64,000 nucleotides of DNA from a virus (IMGVR_UViG_3300021255_000139); one strand, 5' to 3'; counted from the stretch's first letter, positions 27,350 to 45,759 are shown. Notes: generated from the sequence alone by a model not told the origin. Program-made: numbers and translations.

Positions 27350-27919
27350 TTGAGTGTGAATATTACTAATCACGCTGCAATGAGGTATGCTGAAAGAATT
27401 GCCGATAAAGAATCATTAGCAGACATAAATACCTATGTTGCCAGAAACCGGGATAAGATAGAAAATGATATAAATACAATGCTTGATCATTCAGATTTTC
27501 TTTATCACGGAAGAGTAGGAACAAAAGATAACGGTGTTGTTGATGTATATCTCTCTGGAACATGGATTCTTTTATTGGATTCAGCCAAAAGCAAAGTGAT
27601 TACACTATACAAAGTTGATTTCAATGTGGGCGAAGATTTCAACAAGCAGTTCATTCAAAAGATTCTCGAACGAATGGAGATTCACAAGAAAGAACTGGAT
27701 GAAGTGAAAAAAGAAGTTGCAGAACAGCGTGAGAATTATCTGCAAATCATTAAAGATAACAAAAGTCAGATTGCAGAATATAAGAACGCTATAAGGCAGT
27801 TAGAAAATCTCAATACCGATTATCAAGATATTGTTGACACTATGGATGCAAAATGTATAGCTTCTGAAATTGCAATCCGGCATGATGTTGAAGATTTAGT
27901 TATGAAGAGGGAGTTCTAA
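27350..27919 (+). CDS. coiled-coil protein
   Basis: ORF; heptad-like charged C-half. Confidence 0.4.
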   Translation: MSVNITNHAAMRYAERIADKESLADINTYVARNRDKIENDINTMLDHSDFLYHGRVGTKDNGVVDVYLSGTWILLLDSAKSKVITLYKVDFNVGEDFNKQFIQKILERMEIHKKELDEVKKEVAEQRENYLQIIKDNKSQIAEYKNAIRQLENLNTDYQDIVDTMDAKCIASEIAIRHDVEDLVMKREF

Positions 27920-29097
27920 TGCTTTATTACGATAATGCAGCAACAACAAGGGTTGACAAAAGTTTAGAGCCAATTTTGCAGAGTATGTTCTTTGACAATT
28001 ACGGCAACCCATCAAGCGTACATACAGTCGGACAATATGCAAAAGAAGTAATTGAGAGAGCGAGGGAGTTGGTTGCGATTTCCATAAATTGCGCACCAGA
28101 TGAAATCATTTTCACATCAGGAGGATCAGAGTCAAATAACCTTGCCCTTAAAGGATTTTCATTTGCGAATGACTGTGAGATTATCACAAGTCCTATTGAA
28201 CACAAGTCAATTTTAGAGACTTGTAAATTCTTACAGAATCAACAAATAAATAAATACTACACTGTCGATGTGGATTCAGACGGTGTGGTTGAAATGTTTA
28301 GTCTGCAAGAAAGAATAGCAGAGGTTAAAAGTTATAATCTGATTCCGCTGGTAAGTATTCAGTTGGCAAATAGTGAAATCGGAACGATTCAACCAATTAA
28401 GGAAATAGCAAAAGTTGTTCATTCTTTTGGTGGTGTTCTTCACGTTGACGCAGTTCAGGCGTACTTCACAATCCAAATTGATGTTCAAGATATGGGAATT
28501 GATATGCTGTCCGTATCTGGTCATAAGATTGGAGTTCCGAAAGGGATAGGCTTTTTATATAAGAAGAAAAGCATACATATCGAACCTTTAATTCATGGTG
28601 GTGGTCAAGAACATGGATTGAGAGCCGGAACAGAGAACACTCCGTATATTGCAGCTTTAAACGATAAACTTTGTCGAGATTTCAGCGAAGAAGATATAGG
28701 GCAAAAAGCGGAACAGCTTTATCAAATGAGGACGTATCTCGAAAAGAAACTGTTAAAAATTCCAGATTCAAGAATCAATGGAGCAGAAAACAAACTACCG
28801 GGGAATATAAATATCAGTTTCAAAGACATTGACGGAGAAACACTTATGATGCTTCTCGACACAAATGATTTAGAGGTATCAAATGGTTCAGCTTGTAATG
28901 CTGGAAATCCAGAACCTTCATATGTACTGAAAGCTATCAAAGTTCCAGATGACTATATTAACGGAACAATTCGGATCACGATTGCCCCGAAAAAGAAATC
29001 AAATTCATATCGGTTAGAATCGAAAGATTTTGCAGAACTTGATATGGTTGCAGATAAGATAAGTAAATATGTAAGTGTTTTAAGAAAAGTTAGGTAG
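27919..29097 (+). CDS. cysteine desulfurase (class V aminotransferase, IscS/NifS/DndA-like)
   Basis: YYDNAATT N-terminus, SGGSESN, PLP lysine motif SVSGHKIGVPKG, active-site Cys region NGSACNAG. Confidence 0.8.
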   Translation: MLYYDNAATTRVDKSLEPILQSMFFDNYGNPSSVHTVGQYAKEVIERARELVAISINCAPDEIIFTSGGSESNNLALKGFSFANDCEIITSPIEHKSILETCKFLQNQQINKYYTVDVDSDGVVEMFSLQERIAEVKSYNLIPLVSIQLANSEIGTIQPIKEIAKVVHSFGGVLHVDAVQAYFTIQIDVQDMGIDMLSVSGHKIGVPKGIGFLYKKKSIHIEPLIHGGGQEHGLRAGTENTPYIAALNDKLCRDFSEEDIGQKAEQLYQMRTYLEKKLLKIPDSRINGAENKLPGNINISFKDIDGETLMMLLDTNDLEVSNGSACNAGNPEPSYVLKAIKVPDDYINGTIRITIAPKKKSNSYRLESKDFAELDMVADKISKYVSVLRKVR

Positions 29098-29106
29098 GAG
29101 GACAAG

Positions 29107-29727
29107 ATGAATATCGAGAAAATCAAAGATGCATTGAAAGTTTTTAGCTGTGAAGTTATCAGCCAGAATGAAAATGAAGCAGTTATCAAAGTATCGAAGA
29201 AAACCGTGAAACTGGCAGATATCCCGAATGGATCAACTTTTAAAGTCGGGAAATTCGAGTTTATTAAACTTGGAGATGCTGCAGACGGAGAAACAACAGC
29301 GGTTATTCTGAAAGAATTTGTAAAGAGGATGGAATTTGGCAAGCATAACAACTACGCCAAAAGTGATGTGCGTAAATATCTCAACAGTGATTTCCTGAAG
29401 GAACTTGAAAAAGAAGTTGGTGCAAACAATATATATGAACATAAGGTTGATTTGATTGCAAATGACGGTCTGAAGGATTATGGAAGTGTAAGAGATAAGG
29501 TTAGTCTGATCACAGCAGAAAATTACAGAAGATATCGTGAGTTTCTTCCGAATTATGGTGATTGGTGGTGGACTGCAACACCATATTCATGTGAATCCAA
29601 CGGTTATGCGTCCAACGTTTGTTACGTGTACTGCAGCGGTTCTTTGGGCGGGATCGACTGTGGCGATTCGGAGGGTGTGCGCCCGTTTTGCATCTTTTCA
29701 TCTTCAATCTTTGTATCTTGTGAATAA
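29107..29727 (+). CDS. DGR1 variable target protein (C-type-lectin-like VR at C-terminus)
   Basis: C-terminal codons 29602-29690 match TR1 except at TR adenines. Confidence 0.7.
   Translation: MNIEKIKDALKVFSCEVISQNENEAVIKVSKKTVKLADIPNGSTFKVGKFEFIKLGDAADGETTAVILKEFVKRMEFGKHNNYAKSDVRKYLNSDFLKELEKEVGANNIYEHKVDLIANDGLKDYGSVRDKVSLITAENYRRYREFLPNYGDWWWTATPYSCESNGYASNVCYVYCSGSLGGIDCGDSEGVRPFCIFSSSIFVSCE
29602..29690 (+). repeat. DGR1 variable repeat (VR1)
   Basis: about 80-90 nt copy of TR1; differences almost exclusively at TR A positions. Confidence 0.75.
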
Positions 29728-29748
29728 ATTAGAGAGTAGCCGAAGTCT

Positions 29749-30123
29749 ATGGACGATAATGAAAAACTAAAAATTGTCAATAAAGCTAAAGAGTTGTTCG
29801 ATTGCACTTTGACAAATACATCAAATAGAAAAAAGTTTCCAGCAAAATACAGAGTTCTTGTTGAAAGAATGCAAAATAAAAGTATAGACATTTATGACTG
29901 TATAATGGATGCGAATCGAAAAAGGCTATACATTCCAAAGGAGAAGATAGATAGAAATTCATTACAAACACAAGCTATTGCTGATTGTGACAAACTTAAT
30001 ATGTTTATTGAAACTGCAATGAATCACAATCTAATTTCTGCCGGATTGTGCGATGAATGGTCAAAGAAAGTAAAAGATGTTAAATACATGACGATTGCAT
30101 GGAGAACAAACGATAATAGCTAA
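29749..30123 (+). CDS. avd: Avd (accessory variability determinant)
   Basis: 124 aa helical basic protein between VR and TR; KFPAKYRVLVERMQNKSIDIYDCIMDANR resembles Avd family. Confidence 0.55.
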   Translation: MDDNEKLKIVNKAKELFDCTLTNTSNRKKFPAKYRVLVERMQNKSIDIYDCIMDANRKRLYIPKEKIDRNSLQTQAIADCDKLNMFIETAMNHNLISAGLCDEWSKKVKDVKYMTIAWRTNDNS

Positions 30124-30125
30124 CT

Positions 30126-30224
30126 CAGGTTATGTGTTGTAGCGTCCAACGTTTGTTACGTGTACAACAACGGTACTTTGAACAGGAACGACTGTGACTA
30201 TTCAAAGGGTGTGCGCCCGTTCTG
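30126..30224 (+). repeat. DGR1 template repeat (TR1)
   Basis: seen directly; AAC-rich; shared GC-rich 3' end GGGTGTGCGCCCGT (IMH-like). Confidence 0.75.
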
Positions 30225-31365
30225 GTGGATAGCGAGGGCGAGTAAGCAATATGCTGAAAGGAGAACAACATCATCAAAAGAACACATAACCTTTCCAAAT
30301 AAAAAGGATAAATACAAAGGTTTAAATAAAATATTGACAGACTTTCAAAAAGTCGTAGACTTCGGAAACTTATATAGAGCATATAAGAAAGCCAAAAAAG
30401 GTAAAAGAAATAAACGAAGTGTAGTAAAATTCGCCATTGTAGCACTTGAAGGTATTCATTTACTAAGAGAACTACTGACAAAGAGAACATATACAATTTC
30501 TTCATATGGCGAATTTACTATATTTGAACCAAAAGAAAGATTAGTAAAGTCTGGAGCATTTAAAGATAAAGTAGTTCAGCATTCATTGTGTGATAATGTC
30601 TTATTACCAACAATGGCAGAGTTATTTATAGAGAATAATTTCGCCGGACAAATAGGGAAAGGAACATTATTCGGACTGGATCATTTGAAGAACGATATGC
30701 TGCAATTCCATAAAGAACATGGAATGGACGGCTATATTCTAAAATGCGATATTACTAAATTCTTTTATACCATAGACCATGATGTATTGAAAAGTGTTGT
30801 CCGAAAATACTTTTCGGATGAAGGTATTATTTGGTTATGTGATCTATTTATAGATAGTACAGATGGAGTAGGAATACCACTTGGAAATCAAGTAAGTCAA
30901 GTATTCGCACTAATGTACTTAAATGAATTGGATCACATTATAACAGAAGAATTACATATAAAGTATTATGGAAGATATATGGATGACTTTTATTTAATAC
31001 ATGAAGATAAAGAATACTTGAAATATTGTCTGAATGTAATTCAAGAGCATATTCATAGTTTGAAATTAACATTGAATGGTAAAACACAGATTATGCCGTT
31101 CAAAAATGGCATCAAATTTCTTGGCTTTCATACATATGTGACACCAGAAGGAAAAGCAATACGGAAACTCAAAAATGAAAATAAGCGCATGATTAAAAAG
31201 CGTTTATTAAAACACAGCAAACTTGTTAAGGCTGGAAAGATGACAAAAGAGAAGTTCTTTGAATCATATGAATCGTGGAAAAATCACGCATCACATGGAA
31301 ACTGTATTAAGCTGATTTATCAAATGGATAAATATGTTGAAGAACTATTCAAGGAAACAAAATAA
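30160..31365 (+). CDS. DGR reverse transcriptase (RT1)
   Basis: RT motifs ILKCDITKFFYTIDH, IPLGNQVSQVFAL (DGR-type GxxxSQ), YGRYMDDFYLI; ORF-track N-terminus is translated TR, true start probably about 30250-30340. Confidence 0.8.
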   Translation: MYNNGTLNRNDCDYSKGVRPFWWIARASKQYAERRTTSSKEHITFPNKKDKYKGLNKILTDFQKVVDFGNLYRAYKKAKKGKRNKRSVVKFAIVALEGIHLLRELLTKRTYTISSYGEFTIFEPKERLVKSGAFKDKVVQHSLCDNVLLPTMAELFIENNFAGQIGKGTLFGLDHLKNDMLQFHKEHGMDGYILKCDITKFFYTIDHDVLKSVVRKYFSDEGIIWLCDLFIDSTDGVGIPLGNQVSQVFALMYLNELDHIITEELHIKYYGRYMDDFYLIHEDKEYLKYCLNVIQEHIHSLKLTLNGKTQIMPFKNGIKFLGFHTYVTPEGKAIRKLKNENKRMIKKRLLKHSKLVKAGKMTKEKFFESYESWKNHASHGNCIKLIYQMDKYVEELFKETK

Positions 31366-31401
31366 GTATTTTATCAACCAAAAGAAAGGAAGTGTTGTTA
31401 A

Positions 31402-31560
31402 TTGAACCCGGCATTTATCATACTTGTGATTATCATTTGTATCGCAGTGTGGTTTTTGGCATCGGCTCTTTACAAACCTATTGGAAAATTCGTAGGTAAA
31501 GTTGGAGAAGATGCTATCAAAGAATTAACAGATGAAGAAAAGGAGAACGAAGAAACATGA
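31402..31560 (+). CDS. small membrane protein (52 aa), not in ORF track
   Basis: TTG start, one TM helix, stop overlaps ATG of SPFH gene (ATGA). Confidence 0.3.
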   Translation: MNPAFIILVIIICIAVWFLASALYKPIGKFVGKVGEDAIKELTDEEKENEET

Positions 31561-32468
31561 AAAGAAGAGGTTTTGTAGGTGGTATCACACTTGCAATCAT
31601 TATTATTATAACTATTATTTTAATGATCTTTTGCACAACGAGAGTGCCAGCCGGATATGTTGCGGTTCAGTATAACATGAATGGCGGTGTCAAAGAAGAA
31701 GTTCTTTCACAGGGATTTCATGTTGTTCCACCGACAGTAAAGACAACACTCTACACAGTAGGGCTTGAACAGAGTTATCTTACATCGGATTCTCGTGGAG
31801 ATTCAGAAGATGACGAAAGTTTTTCTGCCAGTTCTTCCGAAGGTAAAGCAATTCAGATTGATCTTACATTTACATACCAGTATCAGCCAGAAAATGTAGT
31901 CGGAGTTTTTAACAGATTTAAAGGGCAGAGTGGAAAAGAAGTAAGAGATAGCTTTATTAAACCTAACATTATTTCATGGACAAAGGAAATTGTAGCAAAA
32001 TATAAGGTGTCGGATATTCTTGGAGCGGAAAGAGCAAATATCAATATTACTATGACAGATTATCTTTCTAAGAAATTTGAACCATATGGAATTACAATCA
32101 GCAATGTTTCTCTTATCAATGTTGAAGTAGATGAAGAAACCAGAGAAGCAATTAACGCAAAAATTACCGCACAGCAGAATGCAGAAACACAGAATATCAA
32201 TAATCAGACAGCTATTGACAAAGCTGCAGCAGATGCAGAAGTTGCACGTACAAACGCACAGGCAAAAGCAGATGCGAAAATGATTGAAGCTGAAGCAGAA
32301 GCAAATGCGAACAAACTTCTTGAACAGTCACTTACAGATAAGATTCTTAGACAGAGATATATTGAAAAATGGAATGGAGAACTGCCGAAGGTGTCTGGTG
32401 ACAACGCTATGATTCTTGACATGAATGATTTTGAAACTACTGAAACTACTGAAAATACGGACAAATAA
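31557..32468 (+). CDS. SPFH/band-7 (stomatin/prohibitin-like) membrane protein
   Basis: N-terminal TM then PAGYVAVQYNMNGG SPFH core and Ala/Glu-rich coiled coil. Confidence 0.65.
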   Translation: MKRRGFVGGITLAIIIIITIILMIFCTTRVPAGYVAVQYNMNGGVKEEVLSQGFHVVPPTVKTTLYTVGLEQSYLTSDSRGDSEDDESFSASSSEGKAIQIDLTFTYQYQPENVVGVFNRFKGQSGKEVRDSFIKPNIISWTKEIVAKYKVSDILGAERANINITMTDYLSKKFEPYGITISNVSLINVEVDEETREAINAKITAQQNAETQNINNQTAIDKAAADAEVARTNAQAKADAKMIEAEAEANANKLLEQSLTDKILRQRYIEKWNGELPKVSGDNAMILDMNDFETTETTENTDK

Positions 32469-32490
32469 TAAATGAATAAATATCAGATAA

Positions 32491-32518
32491 CTTGTTTATA
32501 ACATATGTTATAGACAAG
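32491..32518 (+). promoter_or_regulatory. 28-bp near-perfect palindrome CTTGTTTATAACATATGTTATAGACAAG
   Basis: seen directly; 20 nt upstream of MTase start. Confidence 0.35.
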
Positions 32519-32539
32519 TTGTCTGTATGAGGACAGAAA

Positions 32540-33298
32540 TTGGAATTAAACAAAATATACAGAGGCGATTGCTTAGAAGTAATGAAGCAGTTGCCAGACG
32601 ATTCAGTTGATATGATCCTGACTGATTTGCCGTATTCTCGCACCAAAAATCATTGGGATGTGATCATACCTCTTGAACCTATGTGGGAACAATATCTTAG
32701 GATTGCAAAAGAAAATGCTTGCATTGCTTTATTTGCAGATGGAATGTTCATGGCTGATCTGATGAAAAGTCAAGAATCAATTTGGAAATATAATCTTGTA
32801 TGGGATAAGGTTTTGACTTCTGGATTCTTGAATGCCAACAGAATGCCACTTAAAGCGCATGAAGAAATCTGTATCTTTTACAGAAAGCCACCTGTTTATA
32901 ATCCGCAGAAAGTGCCGGGAAACCGCAACCACAGCAAAGGTAGTAAGAAGGTTAATAAGAATCATAACTACGGAGACTATGGTTTTGTGGATAATCATGA
33001 AACGCTTGGAGAGATGAAACATCCGACAAGTATTTTAAGATTTCAAAAGCCACACCCGTCTAAATCCTTGCATCCAACAGAAAAATCAGTTGAATTATGT
33101 GAATGGTTAATCAAAACTTACACAAATCCGAGGGGGATTGTCCTCGATAGCTGCATTGGATCAGGAACTACTTGTTTGGCTGCAATTAAGAACGACAGAT
33201 ACTATATTGGAATCGACTTAGAAGAACAATATTGCAGAGTTGCGGAAAACAGAATCAGAGAATATCTGGCTGAAAAAGAATCTATAGAGGTGGAATAA
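32540..33298 (+). CDS. beta-class amino (N6A/N4C) DNA methyltransferase
   Basis: YRGDCLEVMKQLPDDSVDMILTDLPY (DPPY-type) then VLDSCIGSGTT (motif I); TTG start with GAGGA RBS. Confidence 0.8.
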   Translation: MELNKIYRGDCLEVMKQLPDDSVDMILTDLPYSRTKNHWDVIIPLEPMWEQYLRIAKENACIALFADGMFMADLMKSQESIWKYNLVWDKVLTSGFLNANRMPLKAHEEICIFYRKPPVYNPQKVPGNRNHSKGSKKVNKNHNYGDYGFVDNHETLGEMKHPTSILRFQKPHPSKSLHPTEKSVELCEWLIKTYTNPRGIVLDSCIGSGTTCLAAIKNDRYYIGIDLEEQYCRVAENRIREYLAEKESIEVE

Positions 33299-33601
33299 AT
33301 GGAGAGAAGAAATCCGGGAGAGTACACAACATACGAAACAAGAGCGTTAGCTAATGAGTCGGTTGATCGTAGAATGAGATATGAACAAGTTCTTGAATGT
33401 TTAAGAGATAAGCCTATGACTGCAAAAGAAGTTGCAGTTGAGATGATGAACAAAGGTTATATCCCAACATCAGAACGAAATTTTACCGCACCACGATTGA
33501 CTGAACTTTCGCAGAGAGGATTAGTCGAACCGATTGGAAAAACGCAGTGTCAGTATACCGGGAAAACAGTCGCAGTTTACGCACTAAGGAGCGCATCATG
33601 A
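33299..33601 (+). CDS. winged-helix DNA-binding protein
   Basis: MTAKEVAVEM...LTELSQRGLVEPIG wHTH-like. Confidence 0.35.
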   Translation: MERRNPGEYTTYETRALANESVDRRMRYEQVLECLRDKPMTAKEVAVEMMNKGYIPTSERNFTAPRLTELSQRGLVEPIGKTQCQYTGKTVAVYALRSAS

Positions 33602-34194
33602 GCAACTTTTACATAGCAGATTTACACCTATTCCATGAAAACGTTTTGAAGGATGGACGATTTCACGAACGACCATTTGAAACACTTGAAGAAATGCACA
33701 AAGTTATTGTGAATAATTGGAATGAAGTTATAACAAATGGAGATATGGTTTATCTTTTGGGTGACGTTGCGCATAAAGGTAATCCATTAGAAGTAGCCAG
33801 TTTATTGGCTCATTTAAAGGGTCAAATTGTTCTGATAAAGGGTAATCATGATAAAGTTCAGGATCAGAGATTGAGAAAGCAGTTTGTCGAAGTTTTAGAT
33901 TATAAGGAAATTGTTGATAACATTGATGGGAAAGCTGTTCCTGTCGTATTGTCGCACTATCCTATATTCTCATGGAAAGGACAGTTCAGAGGTGCGGTAC
34001 ATCTTTACGGTCACGTTCACGATAATGATGATGATATACTTTATCAAAATGCAATAAAGACAGCAGATGACTACTTTAAGAAAAGGGACGGAGAAAGACA
34101 TAAACCATTCATGGCTTTTAATGTTGGATGTATGAAAGATTATATGAATTATAAACCGAGAACATTGAAAGAAATAATTGCTGCAAACGCTTGA
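33598..34194 (+). CDS. calcineurin-like metallophosphoesterase
   Basis: DLHLFH, GDVAHKG, GNHD, GHVH metal-ligand motifs; ATG 33598 after AAGGAG. Confidence 0.65.
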   Translation: MSNFYIADLHLFHENVLKDGRFHERPFETLEEMHKVIVNNWNEVITNGDMVYLLGDVAHKGNPLEVASLLAHLKGQIVLIKGNHDKVQDQRLRKQFVEVLDYKEIVDNIDGKAVPVVLSHYPIFSWKGQFRGAVHLYGHVHDNDDDILYQNAIKTADDYFKKRDGERHKPFMAFNVGCMKDYMNYKPRTLKEIIAANA

Positions 34195-34238
34195 CAAATA
34201 GATAAAATGTGGTACAATAAGAACGAATAAATAAATAC

Positions 34239-35573
34239 ATGGGAGATGATATGTATACACTAATGAATTGGAATCCAGTATATAATTTTGTGTTTATGAT
34301 TAAACATGAATATCAGAAGAAAATAGGACAGCCAGAATACAAAAAGTATGAAGTTGACGGAAAAGAGATTACTTGTCTGGAGTATTGGATTCTCGCACTC
34401 AATAACAAAGATTATACAGATAGGATCAAGTATCTGGAAATCAACCAAAATAAAGAATTGTTGTTGGTGCGATATGCTAAGTATTCAGATGTTCTTAGCG
34501 GTGAAGAAGAGATTATACTTGATGATATTTGGGATATGTACGATGGTTTCTATCTCGAATGCCGGAGTGTGGTTTTTGATTTGAAGTCAGAAGAAATTGT
34601 GATTGCTCCGTTTAAAAAATTCCGCAACCTAAACGAATGTCCTGAAAATTCACTCGAAAACGTGACAAAAGAAATCAATAGTGCGAAGAATGTTGAAGTG
34701 TCAAATAAACTTGATGGCTCTATGCAGTGCGCACGTTGGTACAGAAATCACGTTGTTATGTCTGGAAGTCAGGCGATTGATCCGGCTATGTCGTGGAGAT
34801 TGCAAGACGGTCTAAGAATGCTGAACGAAAATCCAAGCTACACAGAAATGCTCCGATTCTTCCCGAATACAACATTCATTTTTGAATACATTTCATTAGC
34901 CGATGCTCATGTAGTTAAATATTCAAAAGAAGAAGAAGGTTTATATCTGGTTGGAATGAGAGATGTTTGTACTGGATTTCAACATTCATACAAAGCTGTG
35001 CTTGCAGTTGCTAAAAGATATGGAATTAAATGTACGAGTGTTTTCGACAAAACACTTGACGAAGTTCTTGAAGATGTCAAACAAATAAAGTCGGAAGATC
35101 AAGAAGGATTTGTTCTCAATATTATTTATGAAGATGGTTCTTCCCGGCTTATCAAAATCAAGGGCGATGATTATGTTCATATTCATAAGATTCTCTCAAA
35201 ATTATCCTCGATCAATCTTATTATAAAAGCGATTGCGGACGGAAATGTTGACGATTTGAAAGCAAAAATTCCAGCAGCTTATAAGAACAGAGTAACGGTG
35301 TTGGAGAAAATCGCACGAGATTTCGTCAAAAAACAGGAACATACAGTAAACGAATATTATTTCTATTCACCAAAATCAGACAAGAAAACCTTTATGATTT
35401 GGGTGGAAAAGAATGTTCCAAAGGAATATAAATCTTACGTGAGAAACTGTTATCTTGGAATTAAGAATAATTATTTGAAGTCTCACGCTGAAACCAAGAA
35501 TCCCAGATACATTAAATTGGTAGAAATGGGAGTAAAACGAGAAGATTATACAACAATCTTTTCAGAGGAGTAG
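34239..35573 (+). CDS. RNA ligase-like nucleotidyltransferase
   Basis: covalent nucleotidyltransferase motif I SNKLDGSMQ (KxDG). Confidence 0.5.
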   Translation: MGDDMYTLMNWNPVYNFVFMIKHEYQKKIGQPEYKKYEVDGKEITCLEYWILALNNKDYTDRIKYLEINQNKELLLVRYAKYSDVLSGEEEIILDDIWDMYDGFYLECRSVVFDLKSEEIVIAPFKKFRNLNECPENSLENVTKEINSAKNVEVSNKLDGSMQCARWYRNHVVMSGSQAIDPAMSWRLQDGLRMLNENPSYTEMLRFFPNTTFIFEYISLADAHVVKYSKEEEGLYLVGMRDVCTGFQHSYKAVLAVAKRYGIKCTSVFDKTLDEVLEDVKQIKSEDQEGFVLNIIYEDGSSRLIKIKGDDYVHIHKILSKLSSINLIIKAIADGNVDDLKAKIPAAYKNRVTVLEKIARDFVKKQEHTVNEYYFYSPKSDKKTFMIWVEKNVPKEYKSYVRNCYLGIKNNYLKSHAETKNPRYIKLVEMGVKREDYTTIFSEE

Positions 35574-36521
35574 TTGTTAATGCAAAAGTTTATTATGATG
35601 TGTGGACTTCCCGGTAGTGGAAAATCTACATACGCAAAGAAACATTTTGTCGGAGAAAATGTAGCATATCTTTCGTCTGACGAATTAAGAGAGGAACTTC
35701 TTGGTGATGAAAATAATCAGGAAGAGAACGGAAAAGTATTTGAAGAAATGGAAAGACGCACTATTTCAGCTTTAAAAGCCGGGAAAAGTGTTGTATACGA
35801 TGCTTGTAATACAAGCTATAAGAAACGGTCACACCTTATCAAACAGATAAATAGATACGGAATACAAAAGATTTGTGTTGTGGTTTATGCTGATTTAGCC
35901 GACTGTATTTCGAGAAATCTCAATAGAGAAAGAAAAGTTCCAAAAGAAGCAATCGAAAAAATGCTCAAAGGCTTTTATTTTCCGCAGTATTTTGAAGGTT
36001 GGGATGAAATCAAGATTGCCGGAACAATCCATACTGGTGAAGCCACCGAGATGCTTAACGAGTTGTTCTTTGGTAAAGATGGTTTGATTTATCAGGATCA
36101 TGATAATCCGCACCACAAACTTTCGATTGGTTATCACTGTTTGATGTGCTATGCTAGTGCTTTATTCTTGGGCGGTGATGAAAATCTGCAGTTAGCTGCA
36201 TTATTCCATGATATTGGAAAGCCGTTCACGAAGGGATTTAAAGATAGTAAAGGAAACGAAAGCGAAGAAGCCCACTATTACCAGCACCATTTAGTTTCTG
36301 GATATTTTGCAGTTCCTTATCTATATAGTGCAGATGCCGTTCAGAAAGACGATTTAAAAGATATTCTTGAAATTCTCGCACTGATTGATTACCATATGCA
36401 TCCTTATTTTTGGGAGAAAGATGATAATAATAAGATGAAAGAAAAGTATCATAATTTATGGGGTGATGATCTGTACAACAAAATTCTTTTACTTCATGAA
36501 TGTGATGAAAGGGCGCACTAA
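35574..36521 (+). CDS. polynucleotide kinase (P-loop) fused to HD phosphohydrolase (Pnkp-like)
   Basis: CGLPGSGKST Walker A at N-terminus; LAALFHDIGKPF HD motif in C-half. Confidence 0.65.
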   Translation: MLMQKFIMMCGLPGSGKSTYAKKHFVGENVAYLSSDELREELLGDENNQEENGKVFEEMERRTISALKAGKSVVYDACNTSYKKRSHLIKQINRYGIQKICVVVYADLADCISRNLNRERKVPKEAIEKMLKGFYFPQYFEGWDEIKIAGTIHTGEATEMLNELFFGKDGLIYQDHDNPHHKLSIGYHCLMCYASALFLGGDENLQLAALFHDIGKPFTKGFKDSKGNESEEAHYYQHHLVSGYFAVPYLYSADAVQKDDLKDILEILALIDYHMHPYFWEKDDNNKMKEKYHNLWGDDLYNKILLLHECDERAH

Positions 36522-37105
36522 TGTTTACAATGACAGAAGATTTTGCCAAAGAATTGCTCAAACAAGATGATGGAAACCATTCTCTTTTGTTCCATTATTT
36601 TAAAAAGTGGATAGACTCACATCATATGGACGAATATGAAAGATTCGGTTTGGAAGAAATGATGTTCTTTGAACGTGATTATCTTCTATATTATCTTGAC
36701 ATTATGAAGCGAAAAATCTCACGAAGAAAAATTGTAGACATTGGATGTCAGCATGGTTTCCAGCAAGTCATTTTCTCGGACTTTGAATACATTGGAATTG
36801 ATATTTCAAAATGCCGGACAATGTGGGATTATGGCACATATATTCTTGGCAAAGACTTTACTGAGTTAGATATTGATTTATCTGATTCAATACTAATATC
36901 AAATATGTCTCTTGGATATTTCAATAACTGGATCAACAAAACAGATAAAGAAATAGCGAAAAAATTGAGTAAATGTGATTATCTCTATATTGCAACTACG
37001 GATGATTTGCTTGAAGAACTGAAACCATATTACACAGAAACAACACTAATTGAAGATCATTTTATATTAGGTGAACATTTTAGGAGAGTATTTTTTGGAA
37101 GATAA
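36521..37105 (+). CDS. hypothetical protein
   Basis: ORF. Confidence 0.35.
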   Translation: MFTMTEDFAKELLKQDDGNHSLLFHYFKKWIDSHHMDEYERFGLEEMMFFERDYLLYYLDIMKRKISRRKIVDIGCQHGFQQVIFSDFEYIGIDISKCRTMWDYGTYILGKDFTELDIDLSDSILISNMSLGYFNNWINKTDKEIAKKLSKCDYLYIATTDDLLEELKPYYTETTLIEDHFILGEHFRRVFFGR

Positions 37106-37337
37106 AATTGAAGTTCTGGTTGCGGATTTGCAGCCAAAAGAAAATGAATGGATTGTTGTTAAATATAATCCGTATGAAATATCGGTATCGACAATTAAAA
37201 ACTATATGGATTATTTAGGCAAGAAATTCGGAGAACACGTAATAGCAGTTCCCAATGATTTAGAAATCATGAAGGGAGACAAAGACAAGTATATTAAAGC
37301 CTTTGAAAATATTTTGGAATGGTTAAAGAATGAGTGA
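37071..37337 (+). CDS. hypothetical protein
   Basis: ORF. Confidence 0.3.
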   Translation: MNILGEYFLEDKIEVLVADLQPKENEWIVVKYNPYEISVSTIKNYMDYLGKKFGEHVIAVPNDLEIMKGDKDKYIKAFENILEWLKNE

Positions 37338-37935
37338 TTGGATCGGCAACAGAAAAAGTGTTTATACCACTCTTGGAGCAAGCAGTCATTCTGAAAAAGA
37401 AAGAGAAATGAACGATTACTATGCTACTGATCCGTATGCGATAGACGTTTTAATCAATGACGGGGGGGCAAATCTTGCACCTAACATTTGGGAAGTAAGC
37501 TGCGGAGAAGGTCATTTATCAAAACGACTTGAAGAATATGGATATAATGTTAAATCGACTGATTTGATTTATCGTGGATATGGGGTCGGAGGAATTGATT
37601 TTCTCACTTGTAACGATAAGTTTGATGGCGATATTTTAACAAATCCACCTTATAAATTTGCACAAGAATTTGTAGAACATTCACTTGAGTTAATCCCAGA
37701 CGGAAGAAAAGTATTTATGTTTCTCAAACTTACTTTCTTAGAAGGGAAAAAGAGAAGAAAACTTTTTGATCTTAGATGTTTTAAAACTCTGTACGTTTCT
37801 ACAAAACGGATTCTTTGTGCAAAAAATGGAGATTTTGAAGGAATGAAAGCCGGAGGTGGCAGTGCTGTAGCTTATGGGTGGTATGAATTTGAAAAAGGAT
37901 ATTGTGGGAATCCGATGATTAAATGGATAAATTGA
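37330..37935 (+). CDS. gamma-class N6-adenine DNA methyltransferase
   Basis: motif I-like IWEVSCGEGHL upstream of NPPY (ILTNPPYKF). Confidence 0.65.
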   Translation: MSDWIGNRKSVYTTLGASSHSEKEREMNDYYATDPYAIDVLINDGGANLAPNIWEVSCGEGHLSKRLEEYGYNVKSTDLIYRGYGVGGIDFLTCNDKFDGDILTNPPYKFAQEFVEHSLELIPDGRKVFMFLKLTFLEGKKRRKLFDLRCFKTLYVSTKRILCAKNGDFEGMKAGGGSAVAYGWYEFEKGYCGNPMIKWIN

Positions 37936-37936
37936 A

Positions 37937-38167
37937 ATGAGTTTAGTACCTATTGGAAAAGATACATATGTAGATACGGATGATTTAGATAACCAAGAAT
38001 ACCACTATTATTGTAAAGCAGAGAATTTAGAAGAGTCACTACCTTACAATGATGAAAATTATCAAACTGTCAACAAGTATCGTTTGTTAAAATATTCAAT
38101 ACTTTGCGGTCGATTATCTGCATATGAAATAGAAACAAACCCAAAATATGAGTGGTTCAGAGACTAA
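37937..38167 (+). CDS. hypothetical protein
   Basis: ORF. Confidence 0.3.
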   Translation: MSLVPIGKDTYVDTDDLDNQEYHYYCKAENLEESLPYNDENYQTVNKYRLLKYSILCGRLSAYEIETNPKYEWFRD

Positions 38168-38211
38168 TTATGTGAATAAAATTCAGGTTTTATTCACAAA
38201 TAAATAAAGAT

Positions 38212-38418
38212 ATGAATAGAACAATAACAGAAATGCACATCTTTCTTGATGAATTATTTGAAGCGTGGAAACGGAAACCAATGTTGAGATTTGGTCAATT
38301 AGTTGTTGATGTTCTTGGCGTTGATCCTTTCTATATCGAAGATAATGAAGCAAGAAAGAAATTCAGAGAATTTGGAGTAGACAATGTTAGCAGCCATAAA
38401 CCTAAAACAGATGTTTAA
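38212..38418 (+). CDS. hypothetical protein
   Basis: ORF. Confidence 0.3.
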   Translation: MNRTITEMHIFLDELFEAWKRKPMLRFGQLVVDVLGVDPFYIEDNEARKKFREFGVDNVSSHKPKTDV

Positions 38419-38632
38419 GCCATTCAATAAAGCAGAACCAGATTCTTTTGCAATGAATGAGTTTATACATATGGAGTGTACAAAAGTGACGGTTCTTGGA
38501 GAAAAGAAAATCGCACTCTGCAATGCTCCCAGCTTTGTATTAACAGATGATGTAAAAAGGGTTACTTGTCCGAAATGTAAAAGCATTATCAAAGTAACGA
38601 CCAAAAAGAAAAGGTTAGGTTATAAAGTATGA
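38384..38632 (+). CDS. zinc-ribbon small protein
   Basis: C...C...CPKCKS. Confidence 0.3.
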   Translation: MLAAINLKQMFKPFNKAEPDSFAMNEFIHMECTKVTVLGEKKIALCNAPSFVLTDDVKRVTCPKCKSIIKVTTKKKRLGYKV

Positions 38633-39501
38633 AAGTATTTCATCACAATGATATTGACGGTTTAAGTGCGGCTGCTGTTGTCGCAAGATTTACACAGAAC
38701 TATAACCCGGATAGCTACTATATGTACGATTATTCAATACCGTTACCTACTGAAGTAGTCGAAGAAGGAGAAACCGTTTATATCGTTGATTTGTCATTTT
38801 CTATAAATACAGTAGATAAACTGAAAGAGTTGATTGATGAAAAACACTGTGATTTAATCTGGTGTGATCATCATACTTCTACAATGGAAGTTCTGGCGCA
38901 GTTCCCGGAATATAACAGCATCAAGGGATTACGTAGTGAAAAATGCAGTGGTGCAGCATTAACATGGATGTACTTCAAAAACTGTGAATTTGAAGAGTGT
39001 CCAATGTTTATCAAAATGATTAGTGATTTCGATTGCTGGAAATATGAAATTGAACACACTCTGCATTTTAAGTATGCACTCGAAGCAAAGGATATTAACC
39101 CGTTTAGCAATATCTGGAATCATCTTGTAAGAGATCAGAACACAAAGGGAATGCCTTTACTTAACGAAATGATTGACAAAGGTATTGTTATTGAAAAGTA
39201 TATGGAGCAGTGGTTCGAGAATTACTGCACATCATACGCCTATGAATCAGAGATTAACGGTGTTAAATGTCTGGTATGTAATATCCGGGCTAACAGCTTA
39301 GTATTCGGAGACAGAATAAAAGATTATCCGCTTGTCGCTATTTGGGTATTTGATGGAGAGAAATATAAGTATTCCATTTACTCTGACAAGGATAATATAG
39401 ATTGTTCAAAGATTGCAGAAAATTTTGGTGGCGGTGGTCACAAAGGTGCTGCAGGATTTTCAACAAAACAACAGATTTTATATAAGAAGGAGAACAGTTG
39501 A
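38629..39501 (+). CDS. DHH/DHHA1 phosphoesterase (NrnA-like)
   Basis: HHNDIDG, CDHHTS (DHH) and GGGGHKGAAGF (GGGH) motifs. Confidence 0.7.
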   Translation: MKVFHHNDIDGLSAAAVVARFTQNYNPDSYYMYDYSIPLPTEVVEEGETVYIVDLSFSINTVDKLKELIDEKHCDLIWCDHHTSTMEVLAQFPEYNSIKGLRSEKCSGAALTWMYFKNCEFEECPMFIKMISDFDCWKYEIEHTLHFKYALEAKDINPFSNIWNHLVRDQNTKGMPLLNEMIDKGIVIEKYMEQWFENYCTSYAYESEINGVKCLVCNIRANSLVFGDRIKDYPLVAIWVFDGEKYKYSIYSDKDNIDCSKIAENFGGGGHKGAAGFSTKQQILYKKENS

Positions 39502-39875
39502 TAATGAAGAGTTTTATTGACAAGAATGATGAATTGAACATTAAATTTGAGAACGAGAAAGAAGAAGAGCATTTTATTACGGCTGTCGGCTACATTCTCG
39601 AATCAATGGGAGAAGAGATTGAGGATTATATCGAGGCTTGTGTGGCAGAAGAAAGGCATTCTCTGAATCGTGCTATCGACCTTGAAAAAGAAATTGAAAA
39701 AGTAACTTTCAATGATCCGGCAACAGTTGTGTTCTGGAAGGACGGAGAAAAGACAGTTTCTAAAGCAAAGAACGGCGATAAGTTCAACAAGGAGACTGGT
39801 CTTGCTATGGCAATCGTTCGCAGACTGTGTGGAAACCGCAATTACAATAAAGTCTTTGAGAAGTATTGCTCTTGA
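39498..39875 (+). CDS. hypothetical protein
   Basis: ORF. Confidence 0.35.
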   Translation: MIMKSFIDKNDELNIKFENEKEEEHFITAVGYILESMGEEIEDYIEACVAEERHSLNRAIDLEKEIEKVTFNDPATVVFWKDGEKTVSKAKNGDKFNKETGLAMAIVRRLCGNRNYNKVFEKYCS

Positions 39876-40092
39876 CAAATAAATAAATAGAGGTAAAATA
39901 TTATTTGTGAGATATGCTTACAAACTCCTTGCCACCCACGTTGTCCGAACTATCAACCTAAAATAAAGTGTTGTTGTGATGAATGTGGTGAAGAAATATA
40001 CAAAGGTGAGGAATACTGGACTGATGATGGCGGTTTCATCTATTGTTCAGAAGAATGTGCCGAAAAGCACAATGGAATCGTGAGCAAGGAGG

Positions 40093-40347
40093 ATGATTAT
40101 TACGATGATGAATACTTTTAATATTTCGATTAACACGATTGATAAAGTTAAGCGGTTTGTGAATTTGACAAATCGGTGCGAAGTAGATGTCGATATAATC
40201 AGTGGCAGACTTCTTGTTGATGCAAAATCCATTATGGGTATTTTCAGTATGGATTTGACAAGACCTATGACACTCCGTGTTCACGAGTCCAATATTGAAA
40301 AATTGGAAGAATATAAGAAAATGTTTGAGGAATTTATTATTGAATAA
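40093..40347 (+). CDS. HPr-like (PTS phosphocarrier fold) small protein lacking catalytic His
   Basis: VDAKSIMGIFSMDLTRPMTL resembles HPr VNLKSIMGVMSLGI; no His15 equivalent. Confidence 0.35.
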   Translation: MIITMMNTFNISINTIDKVKRFVNLTNRCEVDVDIISGRLLVDAKSIMGIFSMDLTRPMTLRVHESNIEKLEEYKKMFEEFIIE

Positions 40348-40360
40348 AGCTGATTTATAT

Positions 40361-41194
40361 ATGGTCAGAGATATTAAGGAAATTTTCGACAATGGGTTTG
40401 TTGACGAAAATCCACGTCCGAAGTATTCCGATGGAACTCCGGCACACACATTATCAGTTAATCATGTTGTGCGAAAGTATGATCTAAATCGAGAATTTCC
40501 AATCTTATCTCTTAGGAAAATTGCTTGGAAAACTGGCATCAAAGAAATTTTTACAATCTATCAGAAACCAACAAACAACATTTGTAGCATGGAAAGCATG
40601 GGTGTCACATGGTGGAAACCGTGGGATATCGGAGATGGAACTATTGGACAGCGATATGGTGCAACAGTTGCACGATACGATCTTATCAATAATCTGATTA
40701 AAGATATCCAGAATGATCCATATGGTCGCAGAAAAATTGTCTCGTTGTGGCAAGAAGCTGATTTGAGAGAAACTGCCGGACTTGCACCTTGCGCATTCTT
40801 GACTATGTGGAATATAAGAAAAGATAAGAGCGAAAAAGAATTTCTTGATATGGCACTTATTCAGAGAAGTGGGGATATGCTTGCTGCATCGGGTGCTGGT
40901 GGAATTAACGAATGTCAGTATGCAGCATTGCAGATGATGATTGCACGACATACGGGATATGAACCGGGTATTTTCACACACTTTGTAGCAAATGAGCAGA
41001 TTTATGATCGTCATGTATCTGCAGCAAAACTTCTTCTCGAAAGATATGAAGATATACGGTCTGAAAATGAACGGAATCCAAGGTTAATTTTAAATCCAGA
41101 TAAAACAAACTTCTACGATTTTACGATTGATGATTTTACGATGGAAGAGTATAATCCTGTTCCCGGAAAGGTCGAACTTGATTTAGGTATTTAA
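40361..41194 (+). CDS. thyA: thymidylate synthase (ThyA-type)
   Basis: RRKIVSLWQ, catalytic LAPCAFLTMWN, IQRSGD, Asn retained in INECQYAAL; start trimmed to ATG 40361. Confidence 0.75.
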   Translation: MVRDIKEIFDNGFVDENPRPKYSDGTPAHTLSVNHVVRKYDLNREFPILSLRKIAWKTGIKEIFTIYQKPTNNICSMESMGVTWWKPWDIGDGTIGQRYGATVARYDLINNLIKDIQNDPYGRRKIVSLWQEADLRETAGLAPCAFLTMWNIRKDKSEKEFLDMALIQRSGDMLAASGAGGINECQYAALQMMIARHTGYEPGIFTHFVANEQIYDRHVSAAKLLLERYEDIRSENERNPRLILNPDKTNFYDFTIDDFTMEEYNPVPGKVELDLGI

Positions 41195-41195
41195 T

Positions 41196-41696
41196 ATGAT
41201 AAAAGCAATCGTTGCAGTGGACAACAAGTGGGGTATTGGTAAGAAGAATAAACTTCTTGCCAATATTCCTGAAGATATGAAGTTTTTCAAAGAAATGACA
41301 ACAGGTTCTGTAGTTATTATGGGTATGAATACATTTAAGTCCATGAATTACAAACCGTTACCAAATAGACAGAATATTGTGATTTGTCGAACTGACGAAA
41401 CAAATCCGTACAGTTATGACAATCTGACATTCATGAATATAACAGAAGTAAAGTTTTATTTATTGAAAAACTCTAACAAAAACATTTTCATTATTGGTGG
41501 AGGTGCGACTTATAATTGTTTCTTCGGTTTTTGCGACCTTATATATGTAACAAAAATCTTTAATGATTATGGCGCAGATACATTCTTCAGAAATCTTGAC
41601 GAAGAGGAAGGATGGAAAGAATCACATTCTGATCCAATAGTGACAAAGAATAATATAATAATACAGTTTTGCAAATACGAAAGGATCAATAAATGA
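41196..41696 (+). CDS. folA: dihydrofolate reductase
   Basis: AVDNKWGIGKKNKLLANIPEDMKFFKEMTTGSVVIMGMNTF classic DHFR N-terminus. Confidence 0.8.
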   Translation: MIKAIVAVDNKWGIGKKNKLLANIPEDMKFFKEMTTGSVVIMGMNTFKSMNYKPLPNRQNIVICRTDETNPYSYDNLTFMNITEVKFYLLKNSNKNIFIIGGGATYNCFFGFCDLIYVTKIFNDYGADTFFRNLDEEEGWKESHSDPIVTKNNIIIQFCKYERINK

Positions 41697-42787
41697 TTGT
41701 ATTAGTTGGCTGTAGCGGTTCTGGCAAATCTACAATAGCATATCATTTGTTCATGAACCACAACTATAAACGAATCGTTTCATATACTACTCGACCTCCC
41801 CGGTGTGGGGAAAAAGATGGTTATGATTATCACTTTGTAAGCAAAGAAGAATTTCTTCAGAAGAAAAAGCAAGGATTTTTTGCTGAAAGTGCTGAATATC
41901 GTGGGTGGTATTATGGAACAGCAGCAGAGGATTGTACAGATGATAAACTTGCAATTCTCACACCTCATGGATTACGGCAGATTAAACAACTGCCGAATTT
42001 AAACATAGTCAGCTTTTATATTGATGTGCCACGCAGAGACAGGTTAATCAAAATTCTTGAACGTGGAGACGATATAGAAGAAGCAAAAAGACGAGATGCT
42101 TCTGATGTTGGTCAGTTTGATGGTTTATCAGATGAAGTTGATTTCGTAATCAGTAACCCAAATTATGAAACTGGTGCAGAGTTTATCGCAAAAAGTATTG
42201 ATTTCAAATATAAGGCTCTTACCAATAATCCAGTTGAGCAGCCAAAAAAGAAATTGAGGATATTGTGCGATATTGACGGGGTTGTAGATGATCTTGTCGA
42301 ACAAATAACAAATAAATACAATGAAGCATATAACGACAACCTGACAATCGAACAGATAACAGAATACAATATGAATCTGTTCACAAAGCCGGAGTGCGAA
42401 GATGTGTTTGAAGAATTTTGTACTCCAGAACTTATTCTAAATATGAATCCAATCGAAGGTGCGGTAGAGGCGGTTACAAAACTTATGGAAGAACATGAGT
42501 TCTATTTTGTAACATCTACAATACCAGAGAATGTAGGATATAAAAATGCATGGTTGAAAGAGTTTTTCCCACTTTATACAGAAAAAATGCTTGTAGTAGC
42601 TTACGATAAGTCGATTGTTCACGGCGATATTTTAATTGATGATTATGGTGAAAACCTGAACAATAATATTGGTCTAAATCTGTTATACAACCGTCCTTGG
42701 AACACAGGTATTCAAGAAAAGCCAAATTATAAGCGAGTTTATAATTGGGAAGATATCATTGAACAAATAAATAATTATGGAGGCTGA
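41693..42787 (+). CDS. guanylate kinase fused to HAD-type 5'(3')-deoxyribonucleotidase
   Basis: GCSGSGKST P-loop and YTTRPPRCGEKDGYDYHFVS GMPK signature; C-half LCDIDGVVDD HAD motif I. Confidence 0.6.
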   Translation: MIVLVGCSGSGKSTIAYHLFMNHNYKRIVSYTTRPPRCGEKDGYDYHFVSKEEFLQKKKQGFFAESAEYRGWYYGTAAEDCTDDKLAILTPHGLRQIKQLPNLNIVSFYIDVPRRDRLIKILERGDDIEEAKRRDASDVGQFDGLSDEVDFVISNPNYETGAEFIAKSIDFKYKALTNNPVEQPKKKLRILCDIDGVVDDLVEQITNKYNEAYNDNLTIEQITEYNMNLFTKPECEDVFEEFCTPELILNMNPIEGAVEAVTKLMEEHEFYFVTSTIPENVGYKNAWLKEFFPLYTEKMLVVAYDKSIVHGDILIDDYGENLNNNIGLNLLYNRPWNTGIQEKPNYKRVYNWEDIIEQINNYGG

Positions 42788-45512: not shown

Positions 45513-45520
45513 ATAAAAAC

Positions 45521-45546
45521 AGGCGGTTGGCGAAAACCAATCGCCT
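45521..45546 (+). terminator. hairpin AGGCGGTTGG-CGAAAA-CCAATCGCCT
   Basis: 9/10-bp stem after nrdG stop; no U-tract. Confidence 0.3.
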
Positions 45547-45564
45547 TTACCACTGGAGAAAGAA

Positions 45565-45747
45565 TTGACAAAAGAAATAACACAAGATGAATATTTTGCT
45601 CTAAAACTATTAGAACAAATGACGCAAAATCAAATTATTCCGAGCAGAATGTTTCAATCAATAATAGAAGATTATCGTGGGAAGATTGACTTCAAAGAAT
45701 TTTCGTGTTATGATGATAGCAAAATACATCAAAGAGTGAATATCTAA
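45565..45747 (+). CDS. small hypothetical protein
   Basis: ORF, TTG start. Confidence 0.3.
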   Translation: MTKEITQDEYFALKLLEQMTQNQIIPSRMFQSIIEDYRGKIDFKEFSCYDDSKIHQRVNI

Positions 45748-45759
45748 AGGAGTCTATCT

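Follow-up and report, generated by a model that had tools for sequence, protein, structure and literature searches.

The viral sequence IMGVR_UViG_3300021255_000139 in all likelihood encodes a heal-and-seal RNA repair cassette. Its core is an RNA ligase of the T4 Rnl1 family (open reading frame 2, ORF2) and a protein which joins a P-loop polynucleotide kinase to an HD phosphohydrolase (ORF3), with a small metallophosphoesterase (ORF1) as an optional addition. The cassette can probably mend RNAs, most likely tRNAs, that have been cut by bacterial defense nucleases. The window, i.e., the whole stretch of 64,000 nucleotides which was analyzed, is phage-like sequence with 33–38% GC. It contains a long array of plus-strand genes up to about 47.6 kb, followed by a minus-strand block, and its source is a large gut-type phage. 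A first-pass annotation had proposed three consecutive genes with end-healing and sealing activities at 33598–36521, and plus-strand reading frames were indeed found at 33598–34194, 34239–35573, and 35574–36521. The predicted activities agree with the protein families matched, with the invariant metal ligands of the HD domain, and with the embedding of related gene pairs in Hen1/Pnkp/Ro60 clusters. Families and folds could be assigned to the proteins, with family scores well beyond what chance would give, the catalytic residues are conserved, and the genes are linked to each other and to known RNA-repair genes.

The proposed mechanism follows the paradigms of T4, RM378, Runella, and C. thermocellum, from which the chemistry of each step, the tRNA substrate, and the counter-defense role are adopted. 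A ribonuclease of the host or of a competitor would cut an RNA and leave one end with a 2′,3′-cyclic phosphate and the other with a 5′-OH. The HD domain of ORF3 would open the cyclic phosphate and remove the 2′,3′/3′ phosphate to give a 3′-OH, and the N-terminal kinase would phosphorylate the 5′-OH. ORF2, adenylylated on Lys157, would then join the 3′-OH and 5′-PO4 ends, most likely steered to breaks in the tRNA anticodon loop by its T4-Rnl1-like C-domain. ORF1 would serve as an optional third component, most likely as a second or alternative 2′,3′/3′-phosphoesterase. By the same analogy, it is reasonable to infer that the host uses anticodon nucleases similar to PrrC or RloC.

The ligase and the kinase-HD protein

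ORF2 matches the Pfam family RNA_lig_T4_1 (PF09511) with 81.8 bits (gathering score 28.3) and also PHROG 562. Among solved structures, T4 Rnl1 is the best match both in sequence (E 1.4e-10) and in fold, which confirms that the KxDG protein is RNA ligase-like. In fold, ORF2 comes closest to T4 Rnl1 and fungal Trl1, the two clades of tRNA-joining ligases, and Rnl1 is nearer than any other ligase or capping clade. A grouping with DNA ligases or capping enzymes, which the first-pass annotation had named as the counter-case, was not observed in the fold comparison.

The motif I lysine of ORF2 is K157, located in SNKLDGSMQ. K157-x-D-G, E216, E289-G290, and K306/K308 align with Lys99-x-Asp-Gly, Glu159, Glu227-Gly228, and Lys240/Lys242 of T4 Rnl1, respectively (the T4 numbering of these motif I, III, IV, and V residues is our own count on the sequence). 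R109, K127, and F128 align with Arg54, Lys75, and Phe76, whose roles in T4 Rnl1 are confirmed (PMC6379707). Motifs I (KxDG), III, IV (EG), and V (KxK) as well as R109, K127, and F128 are invariant in 20 homologs with 51–78% identity to ORF2.

Two observations speak against equating ORF2 with the T4 enzyme. With 64.1 bits, it stays below the cut-off of 242 for the NCBIfam T4 RnlA equivalog TIGR02308. Furthermore, Ser177, which is invariant in the family, sits where T4 Rnl1 has Lys119, and the active sites of the two enzymes thus differ. Lys119 of the T4 enzyme is reportedly essential. Judged from its sequence, ORF2 represents a divergent subfamily and is a genuine Rnl1-family ligase, not an ortholog of T4 RnlA.

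What defines a family of RNA ligases is the domain appended to the nucleotidyltransferase core, and in T4 Rnl1, the C-domain gives specificity for the tRNA anticodon loop (PMC6379707). Hence, the C-terminal 129 residues of ORF2 were examined separately. In a profile–profile comparison with hhalign, this domain matched the C-domains of T4-like Rnl1 proteins (a profile of five such proteins from annotated phages) with a probability of 95.4% (E 1.8e-8 over 97 columns), compared to 0.2% for the reversed control. As the Pfam family T4_Rnl1_C matches ORF2 only weakly (E 0.006, under its cut-off) and a search of the C-domain profile against PDB sequences gave no match, the domain assignment is taken solely from the profile–profile comparison. 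Because of this homology, tRNA anticodon loops are the most likely target, and ORF2, by analogy with T4 Rnl1, would seal 3′-OH/5′-PO4 breaks there.

ORF3 matches the Pfam families AAA_33 (E 2e-25) and HD (PF01966, E 3e-7) as well as PHROG 505 “polynucleotide kinase,” and its P-loop reads GLPGSGKST. The predicted fusion of a P-loop kinase with an HD domain is thus borne out, and the two-domain AlphaFold2 model has a predicted local distance difference test (pLDDT) score of 93. The N-terminal half is best matched by the kinase domain of C. thermocellum Pnkp (CthPnk; E 1e-12), followed by PSTK, Pnkp1, and T4 Pnk. D36 and R39 are equivalent to the catalytic Asp38 and Arg41 of CthPnk in the alignment to its SSD..R segment, and R118 and R120 correspond to the lid arginines. 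In 22 homologs, G11-K17-S18 of the P-loop, S35-D36, R39, D76, and R118 are invariant except for S18, which, like R120, is conserved in at least 90% of the sequences. In the HD half, H188, H212-D213, H234, H238, H274, and D311 are invariant in 22 homologs and constitute the full set of metal ligands. The kinase fold is nearest to polynucleotide/RNA 5′-kinases (CthPnk, T4 Pnk, fungal RNA kinase, and PSTK) and does not group with deoxynucleoside monophosphate kinases, the case that had been raised against a role in RNA repair.

The earlier label “Pnkp” fits ORF3 only loosely. The C-terminal DxDxT (HAD) 3′-phosphatase of T4-type Pnkp is absent from ORF3, the C-terminal half of which has an HD fold, and T4 Pnk aligns only to the kinase part. 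The family of bacterial three-domain Pnkp (TIGR04075) is matched by the kinase segment alone (62 bits, cut-off 750). ORF3 aligns with both halves of p110 of phage RM378, a protein annotated as “probable poly A polymerase,” but in p110, the HD domain comes first and the kinase second. Hence, the HD(N)–kinase(C) order is reversed in ORF3, with the kinase at residues 1–150 and HD at residues 175–315. By analogy, ORF3 would work like HD-Pnk enzymes and appears as a permuted or independent fusion. Enzymes with the kinase-HD order are not known to have been characterized biochemically.

The two genes are translationally coupled, and their gene models could be refined (Table 1). ORF2 most likely starts at the ATG at 34251, which has a GGGAG ribosome-binding site and yields 440 amino acids, the length of the closest homologs; the gene and the KLDGS motif of the ligase-like protein are as annotated before, while its length is probably 440 and not 444 residues. 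For ORF3, the ATG at 35580 with GGAG 9 nt upstream is the most likely start and gives 313 amino acids, as in the homologs.

Table 1 Features of the repair locus (positions refer to the window)
Feature	Position	Strand	Description
ORF1	33598..34194	+	198 aa; small dinuclear metallophosphoesterase, aq_1665 type; putative accessory 2′,3′-cyclic/3′-phosphate end healer
Sigma-70-like promoter match	34191..34218	+	TTGACA-16 nt-TGgTACAAT; consensus-level evidence
ORF2	34239..35573	+	444 aa as listed; Rnl1-family ATP-dependent RNA ligase
ORF2 motif I (KLDGS)	34707..34721	+	K157 is the predicted adenylylated lysine
ORF2 C-terminal all-helical domain	35184..35570	+	About residues 316–444; homologous to the T4 Rnl1 C-domain
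ORF3	35574..36521	+	315 aa as listed; kinase-HD fusion
ORF3 N-terminal domain	35574..36023	+	P-loop polynucleotide 5′-OH kinase
ORF3 C-terminal domain	36096..36521	+	HD phosphohydrolase; predicted 2′,3′-cyclic phosphodiesterase/3′-phosphatase
ORF4	36521..37105	+	194 aa; weakly class-I SAM-methyltransferase-like neighbor

Linkage of the pair in phages and bacteria

Megablast of the 30–40 kb part of the window against cultured phages gave no match, and neither did a scan of viral contigs with a single sequence. For the viral census, we, therefore, used an alignment-based scan of IMG/VR, which yielded 78 loci (L numbers denote individual loci). In 75 of these, a kinase gene comes after the ligase gene. 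Dereplication at 80% ligase identity left 24 lineages, 22 of which have this arrangement. One of the two exceptions (L083) is cut off inside the ligase gene, and the other (L078) has no kinase within 6 kb. Ligase homologs are also numerous in metagenomes (50–96% identity), where the next gene encodes a kinase-HD protein in every context read.

In cultured phages, full-length relatives of ORF3 with 31–36% identity were found in 37 records, nearly all of them from large Bacillus siphophages (Tsamsa, Nate, Skywalker, and others), and many of these records carry an annotated RNA/tRNA ligase alongside. In Tsamsa and Nate, the ligase gene is directly upstream of the kinase-HD gene, with overlapping stop and start codons. 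The closest cultured ligase is that of Bacillus phage KLEB27-3 (37% identity over 90% of ORF2), and a kinase-HD gene follows 1.3 kb downstream.

The pair also occurs in bacterial genomes, mostly of Bacillota (Lachnospiraceae, Acetivibrio, Pseudobacteroides, Priestia, and others). Genes for Hen1 and the three-domain Pnkp come right after the pair in Acetivibrio cellulolyticus, A. mesophilus, Pseudobacteroides cellulosolvens, and several metagenome-assembled genomes. Among the Bacillota loci, a complete or partial Hen1 gene follows the pair in seven, five of which have a full-length Pnkp, and Ro60/TROVE lies ahead of the pair in two. A five-gene super-cluster of Ro60/TROVE, Rnl1-type ligase, kinase-HD, Hen1, and Pnkp is seen at L091 (A. 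cellulolyticus JH556653.1), and also at L110, L123, L108, and L109. Such a super-cluster represents two complete heal-and-seal systems side by side. With these gene neighbors, the pair is part of the best-known RNA-repair neighborhood of bacteria.

The partners of the pair vary to some extent. The kinase-HD gene can also pair with a PF09414 (Rnl2-type) ligase, and in several viral lineages, a PF09414 ligase gene is directly upstream of the Rnl1 gene. In L033, the most populated viral lineage, a 267-aa nucleotidyltransferase (7304–8107) is encoded between ligase and kinase-HD; it matches phrog_388 (E 1.6e-10), has a GS...DxD signature, and gave no Pfam or PDB match. It may be a partner similar to RlaP that restores excised nucleotides, although membership in RlaP is not claimed.

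PHROG 562, which ORF2 matches, is annotated as “RNA ligase and tail fiber protein attachment catalyst.” ORF2 could accordingly be a mainly non-enzymatic morphogenetic factor, as in the tail-fiber attachment role of T4 gp63, and the kinase-HD protein an enzyme of nucleotide metabolism, for which the region holds further genes (ThyA, DHFR, Gmk-NT5C, and NrdDG). We consider this very improbable. All catalytic residues of the ligase are invariant in the homologs described above, the kinase fold is nearest to polynucleotide kinases and not to nucleoside monophosphate kinases, and the repair genes lie far from the structural module and on the opposite strand. Moreover, the pair also resides on bacterial chromosomes beside Hen1-Pnkp, where tail fibers do not exist.

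A second alternative, which we regard as unlikely, concerns the substrate. The cassette could serve general repair of RNA (mRNA or rRNA) or of DNA/RNA ends and not the repair of tRNA anticodon loops after attack by nucleases of the PrrC/RloC type. Several points weigh in this direction and against tRNA as the substrate. The cellular homologs of the pair sit with Ro60 and Hen1-Pnkp, the natural substrates of which are not established by anything examined here. The Runella ligase that adjoins HD-Pnk sealed none of the substrates tried (PMC6097658), and a paper on Runella HD-Pnk cited there speaks, at least in its title, of “DNA/RNA” end healing, so a DNA role is possible for such kinases. In addition, neither tRNA genes nor Rfam elements were found in the window. 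Opposed to this are the homology of the ORF2 C-domain to the anticodon-loop specificity domain of T4 Rnl1 (PMC6379707) and the proximity of the ORF2 fold to the tRNA-joining clades T4 Rnl1 and fungal Trl1. In addition, this phage has a gene for a PTH2 peptidyl-tRNA hydrolase, which points to an investment in tRNA/translation rescue. Hence, we favor tRNA repair as the most likely role of the cassette.

The metallophosphoesterase and the surrounding genes

ORF1 matches the calcineurin-like family Metallophos (PF00149) with an E-value of 4e-7 and phrog_547 “phosphoesterase” with one of 8e-37. Its family profile matches Aquifex aq_1665 (PDB 1xm7) over the full length (E 4e-24). Across the aligned orthologs that are linked to a ligase, the metal-binding motifs D8-x-H10, G55-D56, G82-N83-H84, H120, and G138-H139-x-H141 do not vary. 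Similarity to the ligase-associated phosphoesterase PdeM (TIGR04123; 24 bits, cut-off 150) is that of a distant superfamily member, and the likeness to an SbcD-related family is also far under the cut-off.

Orthologs of ORF1 with 41% identity are found directly upstream (L008) or directly downstream (L010) of the ligase-kinase pair. The upstream position is seen in the window and in loci of the L006–L009, L013, and L018 types, the downstream position in those of the L010/L036 and L033 types. Of the 24 dereplicated viral lineages, 6 have an ORF1-type gene no more than 6 kb from the ligase; in 5, it is the immediate neighbor, in at least four arrangements. By a rough binomial estimate, in which the lineages are not fully independent, random placement would give this with a chance of about 0.01–0.03 for the 6-kb criterion and about 1e-4 to 6e-4 for adjacency. 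Loci L079–L081 are the most telling. Here, the ligase is followed by a 164-aa kinase-only Pnk without HD and then by the phosphoesterase, which starts with an ATGA overlap at the kinase stop (L079, 7354–8408). These two genes resemble the kinase-metallophosphoesterase part of bacterial Pnkp in split form. An Rnl2-type ligase is encoded 1.3–1.6 kb upstream in these loci.

Four phages were sampled for the context of the ORF1 family in cultured phages. In Pseudomonas phage EM (L135, NC_073601.1 10498–17920), the ORF1-type gene is 1.2 kb from an rnlA homolog (E 1.5e-14 to ORF2). About 6.5 kb of this genome hold genes for an Rnl2-like “kDNA-like ligase,” an HD-type protein (annotated as RelA/SpoT), the ORF1-type metallophosphatase, rnlA, and a small AAA protein, for which homology to the ORF3 kinase was not detected at E < 0.01. 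This gene group of a pakpunavirus looks like an unrecognized RNA-repair island in well-studied therapeutic phages. The neighbors of the ORF1-type gene are an HD hydrolase and a weakly Pnk-like ATPase in Ralstonia RSP15, tRNA genes in Eggerthella LE2-3, and DHFR and RecU in Psychrobacillus phage Perkons. The “metallophosphoesterase” gp181 of KLEB27-3 was rejected as an ortholog of ORF1 (E 0.098).

A role of ORF1 in RNA repair also has to be weighed against several observations. The ORF1 family occurs in 1489 phage records, compared to 288 with an ORF2-like ligase. Of the 24 viral lineages, 18 lack an ORF1-type gene within 6 kb of the ligase, and only 1 of 27 genome-collection loci (L102, likely a phage contig) has one. 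The gap of 44 nt between ORF1 and ORF2 holds a near-consensus promoter match, which parts the two genes. It is one of two 11/12 matches in 29000–40000 and the sole one with an extended −10 TG, although the region as a whole has no more promoter-like sites than expected from shuffled sequence. ORF1 is instead coupled to the preceding gene, as its ATG, with AGGAG as ribosome-binding site ahead, overlaps the stop codon of a 100-aa winged helix-turn-helix-like ORF. Finally, aq_1665 (1xm7), the sole solved relative, is labeled merely “hypothetical protein” and gives no function.

Thus, it is conceivable, with a probability clearly short of even, that ORF2 and ORF3 alone form the repair module and that ORF1 is an unrelated general phage phosphoesterase of nucleotide, signaling-nucleotide, or DNA-end metabolism in the same auxiliary region. 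The gene neighbors in Perkons and the weak named relatives, i.e., the DNA-damage-associated PdeM and the SbcD-related family, also fit such an assignment. It is opposed by the recurrence of ORF1 adjacency in at least four gene orders across ligase lineages of 36–60% identity, by the phosphoesterase directly after the HD-less kinase in L079–L081, and by the neighbors in EM (rnlA), RSP15 (HD protein and kinase-like ATPase), and LE2-3 (tRNA genes). On balance, we consider ORF1 a probable accessory end-healing enzyme. It is treated as accessory and not as core because its family is far commoner than the ligase, because it is absent near the ligase in most lineages, and because of the promoter-like site in between. 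The gene had been correctly recognized as a metallophosphatase, but it is not a universal part of the module.

A more specific and tentative suggestion, on balance rather doubtful, is that the aq_1665-type metallophosphoesterase (PHROG 547, about 1500 phage records) is a dedicated healer of RNA 2′,3′-cyclic/3′-phosphates, which partners or replaces the HD domain of the kinase. No characterized aq_1665-type member was among the matches found. If the suggestion is true, a phage with two 3′-end healing chemistries (HD and metallophosphoesterase) could mend the products of more than one class of defense ribonucleases.

ORF4, the ATG of which overlaps the stop codon of ORF3, has no Pfam, PHROG, or NCBIfam match. 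Its family comprises 23 clusters, one of which carries the UniRef name “Class I SAM-dependent me...” (SAM, S-adenosylmethionine). The best profile matches in the PDB are weak ones to methyltransferases (E 0.014), and ORF4 contains a DIGCQxG...YIGID signature. A function as the Hen1-like RNA methyltransferase of the module was rejected as there is no family match and relatives elsewhere do not adjoin ligase or kinase genes. Hence, ORF4 is a lineage-specific neighbor and not a conserved module member; that it marks repaired RNA in the manner of Hen1, given its coupling to ORF3, is a possibility.

Upstream of the module, a diversity-generating retroelement was found at 29107–31365. It has an 83-nt repeat pair with 84% identity and mismatches at A of the template copy (variable repeat 29608–29690, template repeat 30142–30224). 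The variable repeat is at the 3′ end of the DUF6273 target gene (29107–29727), a 124-aa ORF (29749–30123) is in the position of Avd, and the reverse transcriptase (RVT_1) extends to 31365. The same reverse transcriptase is upstream of the module in L006/L007. We rejected this enzyme, 3 kb upstream, as a part of the repair module as the element is a classical one with mismatches at the adenines of the template repeat.

The PTH2-type peptidyl-tRNA hydrolase is encoded at 24413–24895 (E 1e-17), right after a phrog_335 “phosphatase” (23937–24416) with a weak Macro-domain match, and would provide this phage with a second function in translation/tRNA rescue. In L008, PTH2 is 1.5 kb upstream of the phosphoesterase-ligase-kinase genes. 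Genes for a PAPS-reductase-domain protein (26190–27275) and a class-V aminotransferase/cysteine-desulfurase-like protein (27919–29097), both also present in L008, are reminiscent of DndC/DndA-type sulfur transfer (DNA or tRNA thiolation). A DHH/DHHA1 phosphoesterase (phrog_4771, 38629–39501), located 2 kb downstream of the module and conserved in L006/L007, could degrade nanoRNA, pAp, or cyclic-nucleotide signals.

Three DNA methyltransferase genes within 21 kb, at 16609–17820 (C5), 32540–33298 (N6/N4), and 37330–37935 (phrog_799 type), indicate a heavy investment in anti-restriction; two of them flank the repair module. A gene of the formate/nitrite transporter family (21669–22286, E 2e-30) is an unusual auxiliary metabolic gene for a phage. 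The block at 40277–47631 encodes ThyA, DHFR, a guanylate kinase-NT5C fusion, and the anaerobic ribonucleotide reductase NrdD with its activase (NrdG), and is closed at the strand switch by a large serine recombinase (45760–47631). Auxiliary block and recombinase suggest that the phage is temperate and its host a strict or facultative anaerobe, which fits the distribution of the relatives in Bacillota.

Comparison with known repair systems

RNA repair by phages is a classic countermeasure to tRNA-cutting abortive-infection nucleases, but nearly all studies of it concern T4. Phage repair systems that combine Rnl1/Rnl2 ligases and polynucleotide kinases with phosphatases of the HAD, HD, or calcineurin-like type have already been catalogued. 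The locus is, therefore, an already familiar kind of phage counter-defense, and the cassette does not overturn the current understanding. Many large phages of gut and soil Bacillota carry the pair of Rnl1 and kinase-HD, which they share with bacterial chromosomes, where it lies beside Hen1-Pnkp and Ro60. The cassette offers a compact system for asking about tRNA-cleaving defenses in gut Clostridia, the kinase-HD order, and the role of the aq_1665-type phosphoesterase, and the enzymes of the cassette could serve as reagents (RNA ligase, kinase/phosphatase).

T4: The T4 system consists of Rnl1 (RnlA, gp63) and Pnkp. 3′-healing in T4 is carried out by a DxDxT/HAD phosphatase, whereas the locus described here has an HD domain and a separate metallophosphoesterase. 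ORF2 is about 20% identical to T4 Rnl1, its N-terminus is about 50 residues longer, and it has Ser at the position of Lys119. Unlike in T4, ligase and kinase genes are adjacent and translationally coupled.

HD-Pnk enzymes: Runella slithyformis HD-Pnk, RM378 PNKP, and D. radiodurans PNKP combine an HD phosphoesterase and a P-loop 5′-OH kinase in one polypeptide, as ORF3 does. The domain order is kinase(N)-HD(C) in ORF3 but HD(N)-kinase(C) in RM378 p110, Runella HD-Pnk, and Dra PNKP (PMC6097658; PMC1997131). RM378 PNKP (Blondal 2005) is the only enzyme in which 3′-phosphatase activity has been shown for the HD domain (PMC1997131). The Runella HD-Pnk gene overlaps the 3′ end of the upstream ligase gene (PMC6097658), and in the RM378 genome, Rnl1 is about 7 kb from p110.

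Bacillus phages: The pair of the Bacillus siphophages (Tsamsa, Nate, Skywalker, and others) and of KLEB27-3 has the same architecture, with the ligase before the kinase-HD protein. The Tsamsa-type ligase is too divergent from ORF2 for BLAST, and no ORF1-type phosphoesterase adjoins the pair in these phages. The repair genes of the Tsamsa type and of KLEB27-3 are known from annotation only.

Pnkp-Hen1: The bacterial system of Clostridium/Acetivibrio thermocellum uses a single kinase-metallophosphoesterase-ligase polypeptide together with Hen1. Here, the functions are on separate genes, and no Hen1 gene is present in the window. Compared with these systems, the distinctive features are the kinase-HD order, two different 3′-phosphoesterases, the recurrent link to an uncharacterized phosphoesterase family, and the Ro60-Rnl1-kinaseHD-Hen1-Pnkp super-cluster.

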